Origin: a virus
IMG/VR virus record: IMGVR_UViG_3300045988_071833
Length of the DNA stretch: 40,395 nt
Reading direction: 5' to 3' (one strand)
The notes under the pieces were generated by a model. It saw only the letters and a list, made by a program, of their open reading frames with translations. It did no database searches and was not told the DNA's origin. This document shows, one piece after another, positions 29,936 through 33,406 of the stretch (its first letter is position 1; the number at the start of each line of letters is the position of its first letter). A program made the translations under genes and the position numbers.

Positions 29936-30166
29936 ATGGGAAACGAGATGATAACACGGCTTATCAACTGCGGATTCTCCGAGCCAAATGCCAGAGATAT
30001 CTATTACCGGTATTATATTTGCGGAGATTTTGATGGACTCGAATCCTTTTTGTGCGCAAATGAGAGCATAAAAATAAAAGCAAATGCTCAAATCTCAACT
30101 GCGGAGAAAAATGGAGAATGGGAAGATATATCAAATACAATGCAAACCCAGACGGAAAAAATGTAG
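29936..30166 (+). CDS. Hypothetical protein (76 aa)
   Basis: AGAGGTGA RBS; AT-richer cargo region. Confidence 0.45.
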   Translation: MGNEMITRLINCGFSEPNARDIYYRYYICGDFDGLESFLCANESIKIKANAQISTAEKNGEWEDISNTMQTQTEKM

Positions 30167-30510
30167 GGGACTGCACAGTCAGAGCAATTTCTACAGCACT
30201 GGACCAAAGCTGGGAGGAAACTTACATTGGATTAGCTCTCCAGGGGTTTTTGATGGGCGATCTTCCCTCAGCAAATTCTGTATGGGGTGCCTATCTCAGG
30301 TCTAAAGGCTTTGTACGCCGTATTGTGCCGGATACTTGCCCAGACTGTTACAACGTGTCTGATTTTGCAGAGGAACATCCGGATGGTACATATATTTTAG
30401 CTCTGTCAGGCCATGTGGTATGTGTCAGTGGCGGGAACTGGATCGATACATGGGATTCTGGTGGTGGAGTCCCGTTATATTACTGGTGCGAAAGAAAGGA
30501 TGAATCTTAA
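30118..30510 (+). CDS. Hypothetical protein with a possible Cys-His-Asp (papain-fold-like) triad
   Basis: NVGDCTVRAIS...LSGHVVCVSGGNWIDTWDSG. Confidence 0.5.
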   Translation: MGRYIKYNANPDGKNVGDCTVRAISTALDQSWEETYIGLALQGFLMGDLPSANSVWGAYLRSKGFVRRIVPDTCPDCYNVSDFAEEHPDGTYILALSGHVVCVSGGNWIDTWDSGGGVPLYYWCERKDES

Positions 30511-31005
30511 ATGGCATTTGCTCAACCCTATTTTGGCGGCTATCAGCCTGGGTATTATCAACCACCTATGCCGGATCAGCTTGCGCAACTGCGGCAGAAT
30601 CAGTTCCAGCCAATCGCGCAGCCCGTAGTACAGCCGCCCCAGATGCAGCAGCCGCAGCAAAATCAGCCCACATCCAACGGGATTATCTGGTGCCAGGGTG
30701 AAGAAGGCGCAAAAGGATTTTTGGTTGCGGCGGGCAATAGCGTGATGTTGATGGACAGCGAGTCCAGCACGTTTTATATCAAGAGCACCGATGCGTCCGG
30801 CATGCCACAACCGCTGAGGATCTTCGACTATACCGAGCGCACAGCTACACCTAAAATTGCGACTCCGGCCAATATGCCCCCCAATGTAGAGTTTGCTACA
30901 AAAGCGGAGGTTGAGGCCCTGGCGGCTCGTTTAGACGCTCTGACAATCAAAGATACTGCCAAGCCCGCGAGAAAATCTGCGAAGGAGGATACAGATAATG
31001 CCTAA
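30511..31005 (+). CDS. Gln/Pro/Tyr-rich N-terminal low-complexity protein with a conserved-looking beta core
   Basis: MAFAQPYFGGYQPGYYQPPMPDQLAQLRQNQFQPIAQPVVQPPQMQQPQQNQ, then GIIWCQGEEGAKGFLVAAGNSVMLMDSESSTFYIKSTDASGMPQPLRIFDY. Confidence 0.6.
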   Translation: MAFAQPYFGGYQPGYYQPPMPDQLAQLRQNQFQPIAQPVVQPPQMQQPQQNQPTSNGIIWCQGEEGAKGFLVAAGNSVMLMDSESSTFYIKSTDASGMPQPLRIFDYTERTATPKIATPANMPPNVEFATKAEVEALAARLDALTIKDTAKPARKSAKEDTDNA

Positions 31006-31225
31006 TCCGCTCTTTTCTATGCTCGGAGGCAATATGCCCTCTATGTCTGGACCAATGGGTAATTTTGCACAGATGATGCAGCAGTTTCAGCAATTCCGGG
31101 CGAATTTCCAGGGGGACCCGAAAGCAGAGGTGGAAAAACTGCTGCAATCCGGAAAAATGAATCAGAGTCAGCTCAACCAATTGCAGAATATGGCGAGACA
31201 ATTCCAGCAGCTTATGCCCAAATAA
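30998..31225 (+). CDS. Small Met/Gln-rich protein
   Basis: MPNPLFSMLGGNMPSMSGPMGNFAQMMQQFQQFRANFQG...; overlaps the upstream stop. Confidence 0.5.
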   Translation: MPNPLFSMLGGNMPSMSGPMGNFAQMMQQFQQFRANFQGDPKAEVEKLLQSGKMNQSQLNQLQNMARQFQQLMPK

Positions 31226-31296
31226 GGCTATAATCGTGGCCACGATTTAATATAGCAACCTTAAAATTATTTTGTAAATGCGAAAGGAGACTACAT

Positions 31297-32040
31297 ATGT
31301 CTTTGAGTTCTGATGGTACTGTGATGACTATGCCTGTTGCACCCACCAATATGGGCGGAAACGGCTTCGGCGGCTTTGGCGGAGATGGTGCGTGGTGGAT
31401 TATTATCCTGTTTTTGTTTGTTTTCTGCGGCTGGGGCAACAACGGCTGGGGAGGAGATGGTGGCGGCATGAACGGCGGCGTCGGTTCTGAGGTCCAGCGC
31501 GGATTTGACCACTCCTCCGTTGTAACCAAGCTGGACGGCATCACCCAGGGTATTTGTGACAGCACCTATTCCCTCAACAACGCCATCAATACCGGCTTCT
31601 CCAATGCGGAACTGTCCCGGTGCAATCAGCAGTCGGCCCTGATGCAGCAGCTCAACAATATGGCTATGCAGGCTCAGAACTGCTGCTGCGAGACCCAGCG
31701 GGCGATTGACGGCGTGAATTACAACATGGCAACCAATACATGCGCCCTCCAGAACACCATGAACAACAACACCAGGGACATTATTGACAATGCCAATGCC
31801 AATTCCAGGGCCATCCTCGATTATCTGTGCCAGGATAAGATTTCTACTCTCCAGGCCGAAAATCAGAGTCTCCGGCTGGCTGCGTCTCAGGCGAACCAGA
31901 ACGCGGTACTCCAGGCGGCTATGGATGCGAATACTGCGGAGATTCTTCGCCGCACCGCACCTCTGCCCGTCCCGGCTTATCAGGTGGCAAACCCCTATAC
32001 AGGTGTTTATGGAAGCTGCTGCAATCCCTGCGGCTGCTAA
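31297..32040 (+). CDS. Single-pass membrane protein, Gly/Trp-rich around the TM helix, with an Asn/Gln-rich Cys-studded ectodomain
   Basis: AAAGGAGA RBS. GGNGFGGFGGDGAWWIIILFLFVFCGWGNNGWGGDGGG; AQNCCCETQ; C-terminus GSCCNPCGC. Confidence 0.65.
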   Translation: MSLSSDGTVMTMPVAPTNMGGNGFGGFGGDGAWWIIILFLFVFCGWGNNGWGGDGGGMNGGVGSEVQRGFDHSSVVTKLDGITQGICDSTYSLNNAINTGFSNAELSRCNQQSALMQQLNNMAMQAQNCCCETQRAIDGVNYNMATNTCALQNTMNNNTRDIIDNANANSRAILDYLCQDKISTLQAENQSLRLAASQANQNAVLQAAMDANTAEILRRTAPLPVPAYQVANPYTGVYGSCCNPCGC

Positions 32041-32105
32041 ACTGCATAACTGCATCTATTTCGTGACATCACGAAATTGTTCGGCCCCGTGCCGATTTTG
32101 AACAT

Positions 32106-32138
32106 AGCGGCGGGGCAATGGCCTCGCCGCTTATTTTA
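32106..32138 (+). terminator. Rho-independent terminator (a second hairpin lies at 32142-32157)
   Basis: agcggcgggg-caatgg-cctcgccgct followed by tatttta. Confidence 0.7.
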
Positions 32139-32177
32139 ACCGCCTCGAAATCGAGGCATTTAGAAAGGATTGATTTT

Positions 32178-32600
32178 ATGGCTGAGTATACGAATATTGG
32201 CCCTGTGACTGTAGCCGCTGGGCAGAATGTGCCCCTTACCGAAACTGCCGTATCTGGGGGAAGCTGTATCGTCCATCGTGAAGGAGCTGGCATTGTGACC
32301 CTGCGGGGCCAGACTAACCAGTGCCGGGCACGGTACAAAGTGAGCTTTGGCGGAAACATTGCAATCCCCACCGGCGGGGCCGTGTCTCCGATCTCCATTG
32401 CTTTGTCTGTGAGCGGTGAGCCGCTTGCCAGCGCAACTGCAATTGTAACGCCCGCTGCGGTGGAAGACTATTTCAACGTGTTCACGGTAGTCTTTATCGA
32501 GGTGCCGCGTGGATGCTGTGTGACGGTAGCAGTCGAAAATACCAGCACTCAGGCGATCAATGTTGCAAACAGCAATCTGATTGCCGAGCGTGTATGCTAA
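32178..32600 (+). CDS. All-beta protein resembling the BclA C-terminal (C1q/TNF-like) domain, without a collagen-like region
   Basis: GAAAGGA RBS. The ORF-track start at 32118 lies inside the terminator hairpin. Sequence TNIGPVTVAAGQNVPLTETAVSGGSCIVHREGAGIVTLRG...YKVSFGGNIAIP...VAVENTSTQAINVANSNLIAERV. Confidence 0.55.
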   Translation: MAEYTNIGPVTVAAGQNVPLTETAVSGGSCIVHREGAGIVTLRGQTNQCRARYKVSFGGNIAIPTGGAVSPISIALSVSGEPLASATAIVTPAAVEDYFNVFTVVFIEVPRGCCVTVAVENTSTQAINVANSNLIAERVC

Positions 32601-32617
32601 TGGAGAGGAGAGATATT

Positions 32618-33055
32618 ATGAGCATGAGAGCCTTAGAGGACCTACGCGAAATGCTCTGCGACGAGCTGGACGAAATCGCAAAAAAGCAGGAAATGTCCGC
32701 AGGCGACCTCGAAACTATCCATAAACTCACAGACACCATTAAAAACATTGATAAAATCATTATCATGGATGAGGATGGTGGCTATAGCCAGGCCGGAGAC
32801 TGGGAGATGGAGGGCCGTGGCAATTATGGGCGCGGAAGCAGCTACGCAAGCCGTGGCAAGCATTATGTAAGAGGCCACTACAGCAGAGACGGCGGAGACT
32901 ATAGCGAGCGCCGCCGCGACAGCATGGGCCGTTATAGCCGAGATGGGGCAAAAGAGCACATGATGACGCAGCTGGAAGAGATGGAGCGTAACGCCAGTAA
33001 TGACAAAGAGCGAGATGCAATCCGCCGTTGTATCAACCAGCTAGAGTCCACCTAA
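32618..33055 (+). CDS. Protein with helical ends and an Arg/Gly/Tyr/Ser-rich disordered centre
   Basis: GGAGAGGAG RBS. Sequence GRGNYGRGSSYASRGKHYVRGHYSRDGGDYSERRRDSMGRYSRDG. Confidence 0.6.
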   Translation: MSMRALEDLREMLCDELDEIAKKQEMSAGDLETIHKLTDTIKNIDKIIIMDEDGGYSQAGDWEMEGRGNYGRGSSYASRGKHYVRGHYSRDGGDYSERRRDSMGRYSRDGAKEHMMTQLEEMERNASNDKERDAIRRCINQLEST

Positions 33056-33070
33056 AAAGGAGGCGGCCAT

Positions 33071-33406
33071 ATGTTGGACGCCAAAGAAATCGGCGTAGCA
33101 ATCGCCGAACTGGAGTATAAAGACTCCAGCTATAGTAACTACGCAAAGCTGGCAAGCCTCTACACAATCCGGGACCAAATGACCCGGCATGCAGATCAAG
33201 GCTATGAGCGGGCCTACTCTGCAACACCAGCGGACCTGGAAGCCCCCACTCGTGTAATCCGGTACGGCGAAAGCGACTTTTTGCGGGCCGTGGAGGGCAA
33301 AGACCCTGCGTCGGTGTGGGATATCATGGATGAGTTAATGGACACGCTCAAAGTAGTCAACACAAGAGTGTACAATAGCGTTATGCGGAAAATAGACGCA
33401 GTGTAG
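33071..33406 (+). CDS. Hypothetical helical protein
   Basis: AAAGGAGG RBS; 111 aa. Confidence 0.55.
   Translation: MLDAKEIGVAIAELEYKDSSYSNYAKLASLYTIRDQMTRHADQGYERAYSATPADLEAPTRVIRYGESDFLRAVEGKDPASVWDIMDELMDTLKVVNTRVYNSVMRKIDAV

Follow-up and report, generated by a model that had tools for sequence, protein, structure and literature searches.

Gene content and conservation of the cassette

The virus record IMGVR_UViG_3300045988_071833, a stretch of 40,395 nucleotides (nt) that is called the window in the following, was investigated for a block of eight genes, g0 to g7. They lie on the plus strand at 29936-33406, between the terminator of the lysis operon and the gene of a large serine recombinase (Table 1). 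An earlier note on this DNA had located the block in the slot following the lysis genes, which was confirmed, and had counted six to seven genes. The genes g1 to g7 were found as described, and the small g0 has to be added as an eighth gene that the note did not list. The block is one conserved cassette of seven to eight genes in fixed order, which moves as a unit among phages with different lysis and integration genes.

For the investigation of conservation, loci were retrieved by relatives of g5 alone, with one genome per species. This resulted in 66 loci, mostly contigs of about 40 kb binned with Oscillospiraceae, Acutalibacteraceae and other Clostridia; 59 of them were non-redundant. The loci were then searched by tblastn and with hidden Markov models (HMMs) of the families, and the presence of a gene was counted only where the contig reaches far enough (assessable loci, Table 1). 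The order g1-g2-g3-g4-g5-g6-g7 was colinear in 59/59 non-redundant loci, with identities of the cassette proteins dropping to 30-45% across loci. The co-occurrence of the families elsewhere, on which the earlier note had made its proposal depend, was thereby established. The genes g4 and g5 form the obligate core, usually together with g2. In the window the genes are closely packed: g1 and g2 abut, g2 and g3 overlap, and g5, g6 and g7 are spaced by 11-20 nt.

The flanks of the cassette differ from phage to phage. Endolysin, holin and recombinase of the window almost never accompany it in other loci. Two to three places upstream, the open reading frames (ORFs) encode endolysins and holins of more than 15 different PHROG families; the large downstream ORFs are tyrosine integrases (13), serine recombinases (2) or host genes, and in the integrated copy L070 the cassette abuts host DNA. 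Fixed order and unrelated flanking families together indicate that the unit travels as a block and is placed after whatever lysis module the phage has. Furthermore, five of the cassette proteins match PHROG families of unknown function (E 1e-20 to 1e-73) with thousands of homologues, which identifies the ORFs as real genes. For g4 and g5, a search of 5.8 billion proteins gave at least 8000 candidates each, nearly all of them gut-metagenomic and unnamed.

The cassette was also detected in phages outside the temperate, spore-former setting. In Butyrivibrio phage Ceridwen, whose host Butyrivibrio fibrisolvens is a non-spore-former, g0 to g7 follow the lysis genes as a complete set. This phage is without integrase or excisionase, and only lytic growth was seen by its authors (PMC7372960). 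Part of the cassette is present in Clostridium perfringens phage CPD1, namely a g2 homologue, a Met/Gln-rich g3-like protein, an inserted HNH endonuclease, g4, a Cys-rich beta protein and g7. The endonuclease gene of CPD1 (L073 5044-5667, plus strand) and one in Dulem virus 33 (L001 11280-11831, minus strand) are inserted at the same point, between g3 and g4; the enzyme is HNH-like by eye in CPD1, and for Dulem virus 33 the annotation says only 'endonuclease'.

Nine loci carry g4 and g5 only, with a weak g2-like ORF in five of the nine, and several of them are on contigs of 139-176 kb. Three of these loci were sampled (L033, L038, L045). Genes for NrdD, dUTPase, guanylate kinase and a DNA polymerase were among their neighbours, and two of the three, L038 and L045, have a phrog_13712 holin about 1 kb upstream. 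Finally, gp66 of the crAss-like phage cr53_1 of Bacteroidales is a g4 homologue (HMM E 8e-40), located two genes past the holin and adjoining virion structural genes. Features in common with g4 are the Gly-flanked hydrophobic segment, CCC, ASQQAQT, PVPVPAY and a GCGCGC end. Around this homologue three further observations were made. The preceding gene, gp67 (L074 2979-3614), encodes a DUF7841 protein with an R/G/Y/D/E-rich tail (RRGGRRGGMMRGGRR...YEDDYER), in composition like the core of g6. The following gene encodes a beta-rich protein of 146 amino acids (aa) in the place of g5, for which similarity to g5 was not detected. The cr53_1 record contains in-frame TAG codons and is thus recoded. 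Neither a Pfam nor an HMM match was found that would make CPD1_040 or crAss gp65 Ena/DUF3992-like or g5-like proteins.

Table 1 Features of the cassette and its surroundings in the window
Feature	Position	Strand	Description and basis	Presence in assessable loci
g0	29936..30166	+	76 aa, small, acidic, helical; overlaps g1 start; ribosome-binding site (RBS) AGAGGTGA 5' of the gene	
g1	30118..30510	+	130 aa, cytoplasmic alpha+beta; phrog_3754 at 3e-28	36/44
g2	30511..31005	+	164 aa; phrog_21718 at 1e-32	43/46
g3	30998..31225	+	75 aa, helical; overlaps g2 stop; phrog_22984 at 6e-20	38/48
g4	31297..32040	+	247 aa; phrog_16490 at 4e-73	49/49
g5	32178..32600	+	140 aa, all-beta; phrog_20016 at 1e-63	
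g6	32618..33055	+	145 aa; alignment, composition	44/54
g7	33071..33406	+	111 aa, helical, acidic; motif YGDSDFLxAV...MDELMDxLxVVNPRxY	22/52
Perfect 16-nt palindrome	31232..31247		AATCGTGGCCACGATT; g3-g4 spacer; candidate operator or weak terminator	
Structured RNA (candidate leader/attenuator)	32037..32180	+	g4-g5 spacer; covariance model R1	
Hairpin A	32059-32076	+	part of g4-g5 spacer RNA	
Hairpin B	32081-32095	+	part of g4-g5 spacer RNA	
Terminator hairpin C and U-run	32106-32131	+	part of g4-g5 spacer RNA; conserved	
Lineage-specific hairpin	32142-32157	+	g4-g5 spacer	
RBS of g5	32163-32169	+		
Endolysin, Amidase_3/NAGPA	27661-29004		upstream of cassette; domain matches	
Holin, Hol44-type	29001-29297		upstream of cassette; domain match	
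Sigma-70 region-4-like helix-turn-helix (HTH) protein	29606..29851	+	81 aa, small; last gene before terminator	
Intrinsic terminator of lysis/late operon	29870..29909	+	hairpin 29870-29901 and T-run; terminator scan	
Terminator closing the cassette	33412..33439	+	after g7; hairpin 33412-33432, GAGCCCCAG-TTTC-TGGGGCTC then ATTTTAT; read directly from sequence	
Large serine recombinase	33491-34828	-	downstream of cassette; Resolvase and Zn_ribbon_recom domains	

Predicted properties of the proteins

The start of g5 is 32178 and not 32118, the start of an ORF of 160 aa, because the homologues are 140 aa long and the ATG at 32118 lies inside the terminator stem. The protein contains a conserved PRGCC motif. 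Its monomer was modelled with AlphaFold2 (AF2) as an 11-strand jelly roll, with a predicted local distance difference test score (pLDDT) of 87.5 and a predicted template modelling score (pTM) of 0.82. With Foldseek the best matches in the PDB were the C-terminal domain (CTD) of F-BclA (9h38), ExsF with bound F-Anchor peptide (query TM score, TMq, 0.77), BxpB, ExsFA and BclA-CTD (1wck). For 9h38, 9h3d, 8d02, 7r1m and 1wck the probability was 1.00, with E 1e-6 to 1e-5 and TM 0.64-0.77. TNF ligands (EDA, 4-1BBL) came next, and matches to the tail-fibre CBD of cyanophage A-1(L), the central-spike knob of phi812, tail fibres and fibritin were also obtained. In BFVD, stand-alone proteins of 130-140 aa from uncultured gut phages were matched best (TM 0.80-0.88); two of these are automatically named 'BclA protein'. 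By its model, g5 is a jelly roll of the BclA_C/TNF-C1q-like type. The earlier note had proposed such a fold without collagen stalk, which the Foldseek matches of this 140-aa, repeat-free protein confirmed.

An exhaustive HMMER search resulted in 637 clusters of the g5 family at 50% identity. The best 150 of these 637 clusters all have 75-196 aa, and no fusion to g4, a fibre shaft or collagen was found among them. In these best 150 clusters the family is thus stand-alone, like ExsF/BxpB, and not stalked like BclA. In BclA (PF18573 BclA_C; 1wck) and F-BclA (9h38) a domain of the same fold (TM 0.64-0.72) caps a long collagen-like stalk with an N-terminal exosporium leader, whereas g5 is without both. 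Its sequence gave no match to the exosporium leader model (TIGR03720) or to Pfam BclA_C or collagen, and GXY repeats were not present.

The closest relationship is seen to ExsF/ExsFA/BxpB, the exosporium anchor of the Bacillus cereus group (9h3d, 7r1m, 8d02). These proteins are likewise stand-alone, all-beta and of TNF/C1q type with about 140-170 aa, and like g5 they lack both signal peptide and collagen stalk. The top structural match of g5 is ExsF (TMq at most 0.77, E about 1e-6). The ExsF trimer is described to clamp Pro-rich peptides of its partners, the leaders of BclA and F-Anchor, in its clefts (PMC12357932). On the other hand, the identity of g5 to ExsFA/BxpB in structural alignments is 11-14%, with no Pfam or NCBIfam match between them. 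Moreover, g5 is phage-encoded, also in phages of non-sporulating hosts, and has its own PRGCC motif. In contrast to the setting of ExsF, no partner with exosporium leader, no ExsY/CotY lattice protein and no collagen-like protein is encoded nearby.

The second core protein, g4, has a hydrophobic segment at residues ~31-46 that is embedded in Gly-rich sequence (GGNGFGGFGG, then WWIIILFLFVFC, then GWGNNGWGG). From this segment, anchoring of g4 in the cytoplasmic membrane is predicted. The protein contains 12 Cys, including an invariant CCC at 129-131 and a C-terminal cluster SCCNPCGC. Conserved motifs are MPVAP, an N/Q/A-rich region with CCC, TRDIID and ASQAAQN, and the Pro-rich PxPVPAY.

A homologue of g4 in crAss phage is annotated as 'spike protein/glycoprotein'. 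The identity of g4 as HA2 or another class I fusion protein was rejected, as HA2 chains appeared in the PDB profile search only at E 0.3-3; in hhalign the g4 profile matched an approximate HA2 sequence with a probability of 0.5%. The crAss label is probably explained by this resemblance and does not indicate homology. On the minus strand an ORF of 254 aa (31291-32055) spans all of g4 and exceeds it in length. The plus-strand gene is favoured by homology (phrog_16490, 4e-73), and the antisense frame is probably kept open by the N/Q/A/G-rich codon usage of g4.

For g1 the earlier note had suggested a papain fold. Cys19, His99 and Asp110 were invariant in 40 sequences, and a CPDC motif is present. 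In the AF2 model (pLDDT 90) Cys19 starts the helix 19-28, His99 starts the strand 99-104 and Asp110 ends the strand 107-110. This is the papain-like arrangement, with the conserved Cys at a helix N-terminus and His and Asp on later strands. The Foldseek matches were weak and all papain-like: Josephin-2 (E 0.08, TMq 0.44), PeiR (TMq 0.48), phytochelatin synthase (0.42), Tae4 and NlpC/P60. None reached E <= 0.001, and the profile search against the PDB was empty. Three phage records name g1 homologues 'putative peptidase' or 'peptidase'. Thus, the suggested fold agrees with the invariant residues and with the kind of matches obtained, but these matches are too weak for a proof; g1 is a plausible, not proven, papain-like Cys-His-Asp enzyme.

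Homologues of g1 were also found alone. They are located in early regions of Tsamsa-like Bacillus phages (Izhevsk_14, L075 4968-5363), beside an Ocr-like anti-restriction gene and a Ser/Thr kinase gene, in Geobacillus phage GBK2 before recombination genes (GBK2_35, L076 4980-5369) and in Lak megaphages.

The remaining proteins are mostly of low complexity or helical. In g2, residues 1-52 comprise 16 Q, 10 P and 4 Y; this Q/P/Y-rich N-terminus is variable in length and is followed by a conserved, beta-rich core of about 55 aa (GIxWVQGE...YLKSxDxSGxP), a helical EYVTRxEFDAL segment and a charged tail. The composition of g3 is 19% Q and 13% M. Its Pfam matches are scattered and sub-threshold only (DAHL, TMP_2, STI1-HOP_DP). 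An STI1-, ubiquilin- or UBA-like nature of g3 or g0 was dropped except as a lead, with sub-threshold matches in two to three of 43 members. In g6, helical N- and C-terminal parts surround a variable R/G/Y/S/D-rich core of low complexity (12 G, 10 R, 8 S and 7 Y in 58 residues) with the motifs RGxHYVRGHYSRD and RRDSMGRYSR. These counts bear out the unusual compositions reported in the earlier note for g2 (Q/P/Y), g3 (M/Q), g4 (Cys/Gly) and g6 (R/G/Y/S).

Small g0-like ORFs with the motif RL(I/V)ACGF(T/S)E..A.D precede g1 directly in about 12 loci, including Ceridwen and Dulem virus 33, and g7 was also found in Ceridwen and CPD1. No family match was obtained for g0 in Pfam and PHROG or for g7 in Pfam, PHROG and NCBIfam, and for g2, g3, g6 and g7 no relative was detectable in PDB or Pfam. 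Signal peptides were not found in g0-g3 and g5-g7.

Regulatory elements and genome context

The cassette is flanked by terminators on both sides. The upstream one was called by the terminator scan with 12 pairs, 8 of them GC, plus ATTTTTTTGT; its T-run runs into TGTATAGT, a -10-like box. A hairpin with T-run followed by a TG-n-TAnnnT-like box recurs 5' of g0/g1 in many loci, as seen by eye.

Within the cassette, the earlier note had placed two internal terminators. The one between g4 and g5 is real and conserved (hairpin C). About half of the loci have a g4-g5 spacer of about 115 nt with three hairpins, of which the last is the terminator. When both strands of 940 kb were searched with the covariance model R1, 35 loci gave a single copy each, without exception located between g4 and g5. 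In the alignment 93.5% of the cells were paired, compared with 40-58% in slid controls. Compensatory changes occurred in 16 of 22 pairs, and none of 500 shuffles reached the observed values. No Rfam family was matched at gathering score across the window, nor at E <= 1 in 29800-33500.

Attenuators and leader RNAs based on an intrinsic terminator, whether riboswitch-like or dependent on a protein, resemble this element in their conserved hairpins before a terminator directly 5' of the regulated genes, supported by covariation; the element described here differs in having no Rfam family. The covarying spacer RNA is a new candidate attenuator or leader. The gap from the terminator to the RBS of g5 is too short for a promoter, so that g5-g7 need read-through. 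In distant variants of the cassette the element is absent and g4 and g5 are separated by 12-22 nt. An alternative antiterminator pairing of the 5' half of hairpin B with the 5' arm of hairpin C is energetically possible, but with a mean z of only about -1.3 it is suggestive at most and was not adopted.

The other proposed terminator (31229-31258) was not convincing: the site is a palindrome that has no proper T-run and was not called by the scan, and a hairpin with T-run is present in four of 38 loci. The g3-g4 spacer of 19/28 non-redundant loci contained a perfect palindrome of even length (10 nt or longer), compared with 5.7% of random 75-nt windows. Its variants all have a GC core (GCGGCCGC, GTGCGCGCAC, CTGCGCAG). 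We lean towards an operator for a dimeric regulator protein rather than an RNA hairpin, because the centre of the palindrome is also self-complementary. A relaxed extended -10 box (TG-n-(T/G)ATAAA) follows 3' of the palindrome in 9/28 loci, against a background of 2%. The promoter-like boxes weakly resemble vegetative extended -10 elements (TG-n-TATAAA) and not the sporulation promoters of sigma-K or sigma-E.

A further candidate for regulation is the HTH protein encoded before the upstream terminator. It matched TIGR02937 (1.9e-5) as well as phrog_3512 'sigma factor' (8e-6), in each case below the curated cut-off. As a universal neighbour of the cassette this protein was rejected, since its exact family is directly upstream in 9/52 loci. 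In other loci, differing region-4-type HTH genes are usually located by eye between lysis genes and cassette, before the terminator. A region-4-type HTH protein may regulate the cassette.

The window comprises the whole of a circular phage genome (about 40,344 bp), as its first 51 nt (1-51) are repeated at 40345-40395 by assembly overlap. Terminase, SPP1-type portal and an HTH_3 repressor-like gene are also encoded. The contig CALIHA010000015.1 is 99% identical to the window and was binned, probably wrongly, with a Collinsella metagenome-assembled genome. Between the closing terminator of the cassette and the stop codon of the recombinase gene, a perfect 16-nt inverted repeat with a 16-nt spacer (CGTTATATAATATGAT ... 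ATCATATTATATAACG) is located at 33441-33488. This is a candidate for the attP core or for the terminator of the recombinase gene. In the integrated relative L070 (11230-11330; compared with L069 11230-11300) the prophage end abuts a host sigma-70 gene that is cut inside region 2/3, and this phage appears to have inserted into a SigA-like sigma factor gene. The attP of the L070/L069 phage carries ACCTGGTGG; the att region of the window is different.

Possible role of the cassette

From gene order, predicted folds and regulatory signals we infer, tentatively and for the most part indirectly, a self-contained cassette with its own regulation, in which a g4 stalk and g5 trimers would act at the envelope of the infected or lysogenic cell. 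Transcription would start from vegetative-type -10 boxes, behind the upstream terminator for g0-g3 and behind the palindrome for g4, and the attenuator would set or regulate the ratio of g4 to g5-g7. The Gly-flanked hydrophobic segment would hold g4 in the cytoplasmic membrane, with a long Cys-studded stalk. By analogy with ExsF trimers on the leaders of BclA and F-Anchor, g5 trimers could dock on the Pro-rich end of g4; the conserved Pro-rich motifs of g4 (MPVAP, PxPVPAY) together with the ExsF precedent suggest how g5 could bind. The outcome would be a stalk-and-knob assembly, possibly cross-linked by Cys or bridged by metal, which g1, the low-complexity g2, g3 and g6, and the helical g7 might process, chaperone or scaffold. 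Least certain is the envelope as its site of action. Superinfection exclusion or receptor masking would be the leading candidate role, followed by an accessory function in lysis or release, and not the building of a spore surface.

Several points weigh against this model. The hydrophobic segment of g4 is short and borderline (maximum KD19 1.78) and is without flanking positive charges. The contact of g4 and g5 is deduced only from linkage and from the analogy to ExsF. With the stalk outside the cell, g5 without signal peptide could not reach g4 before lysis. Known exclusion systems are usually single proteins and not cassettes of eight genes. The promoter support is weak, as the relaxed extended -10 box occurs in only the 9/28 loci mentioned above. 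The stand-alone homologues indicate that the role of g1 may be separable from the cassette. Furthermore, no function was assigned by homology, since searches of the cassette proteins in Pfam, NCBIfam, PADLOC and by sequence in the PDB gave nothing above the thresholds.

A function as accessory of lysis or release is less likely. Here g4, with g5, would act late on the membrane or the outer envelope layers with spanin-like logic, and g1 would be a released peptidase. The cassette lies about 1-5 kb downstream of holin or endolysin in every phage type examined (siphoviruses, CPD1, polymerase-encoding contigs, crAss-like phage), and the spanins of Gram-negative phages likewise adjoin these genes. 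In general, i-spanins have an N-terminal membrane anchor, a long helical region and a Pro-rich end. The broad layout of g4 corresponds to this, with a presumably helical long region that carries conserved Cys. Proteins without signal peptide could leave through holin lesions as endolysins do. However, in the window, as in many further loci, cassette and lysis operon are separated by a strong terminator, and the position is the usual slot for accessory genes in temperate Firmicutes phages, which makes it weak evidence. Most hosts are monoderm Clostridia without an outer membrane for fusion. No sequence similarity to a spanin, holin or lysis PHROG was found, and the partner of g4 is a TNF-fold protein instead of a lipoprotein.

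The earlier note points to lysogenic conversion. In this reading a cargo (moron) module would be expressed by the prophage, possibly in the sporulating mother cell, and would add ExsF/BclA-like and cross-linkable Cys-/Tyr-rich proteins to coat, exosporium or cell surface. We consider this quite unlikely. The slot between lysis genes and attP/int is shared with the morons of temperate Firmicutes phages, and in the integrated L070 the cassette is at the host junction. It is likewise bracketed by terminators, has weak promoter-like boxes and possibly its own promoters. Clostridia account for many of the host bins. Structurally, g5 is matched best by exosporium proteins; these are also without signal peptides since they are assembled in the mother cell. 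Coat proteins are typically Cys-rich and Tyr/Gly-rich, and this composition is found in the cassette.

In contrast to morons, which are usually single genes of patchy occurrence, the cassette consists of seven to eight genes whose order is the same in 59/59 loci and which are conserved down to an identity of about 30-40%; it is neither patchy nor restricted to temperate phages. Its full set is present in the lytic Ceridwen, g4 in a crAss-like phage of Bacteroidales and g4-g5 in contigs with their own DNA polymerase and NrdD. The occurrence of the cassette, of its g4-g5 core or of g4 alone behind holin genes in phages that are integrase-less or have non-sporulating hosts argues against a spore-specific or purely lysogenic-conversion role. 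In addition, the putative -10 boxes look vegetative and not like those of sigma-K or sigma-E, the exosporium leader model and coat families were not matched, and TNF-like knobs are common in phage fibres and giant-virus proteins too. Thus, the cargo and spore-coat proposal was not supported; it is weakened by these hosts and lifestyles, but may hold for the temperate members.

An association with the virion is improbable as well. In this case g5 trimers would be knob-like decorations or receptor-binding heads, attached to capsid or tail via other cassette proteins. Many phage fibres end distally in TNF/C1q-like knobs, and g5 matched fibre proteins; all products but g4 are without export signals and would meet virions in the cytoplasm; and the g4 homologue of cr53_1 adjoins virion structural genes. 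Nevertheless, the cassette is not part of the head and tail modules and follows a terminator, g5 is not fused to a fibre shaft or collagen stalk (at most 196 aa in the best 150 of 637 clusters), and a membrane-anchored partner would be odd in a tailed-phage virion.

About equally doubtful is an early module for host takeover or anti-defence, comprising at least g0-g3, with g1 as cysteine peptidase or deconjugase acting on host proteins: the early location of lone g1 homologues and the deubiquitinase Josephin-2 as best fold match speak for it, but this match is not significant, no known anti-defence family was among the Pfam, PHROG and NCBIfam results, the PADLOC defence models gave no match for g1-g7 at E <= 1, and the obligate core of membrane protein and TNF fold would be left unexplained.

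As the earlier note had stated for this combination of proteins, no system described so far corresponds to the complete cassette. The searches of domain, defence and RNA families gave no match, and the PHROG families are listed with 'unknown function'. A literature search for the PHROG identifiers of the cassette and for DUF7841 found no mention of them. The fold superfamily of g5 is already known. To extend the proposed stalk-and-knob assembly to its full form, g4 and g5 with g2 and helpers would constitute an undescribed structure, namely a membrane-anchored, Cys-cross-linked filament with an ExsF-like trimer as cap. It would be assembled without secretion, like the exosporium nap but in infected vegetative cells, controlled by an attenuator RNA of a new class, and would share its origin with ExsF and BclA-CTD. 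In this complete version the proposal is rather speculative and on balance unlikely.

Among the gut phages of humans and animals the cassette is a common unknown, for which gene order, core pair, flanks and regulatory RNA now provide a handle. With its strong covariation, the three-hairpin RNA adds a new candidate for a cis-regulator. If the stalk-and-knob assembly is true, phages would make an envelope structure of a new kind, one that ties phage biology to the logic of spore-surface assembly. If the cassette serves superinfection exclusion or receptor masking, it would shape the competition between phages in the gut.

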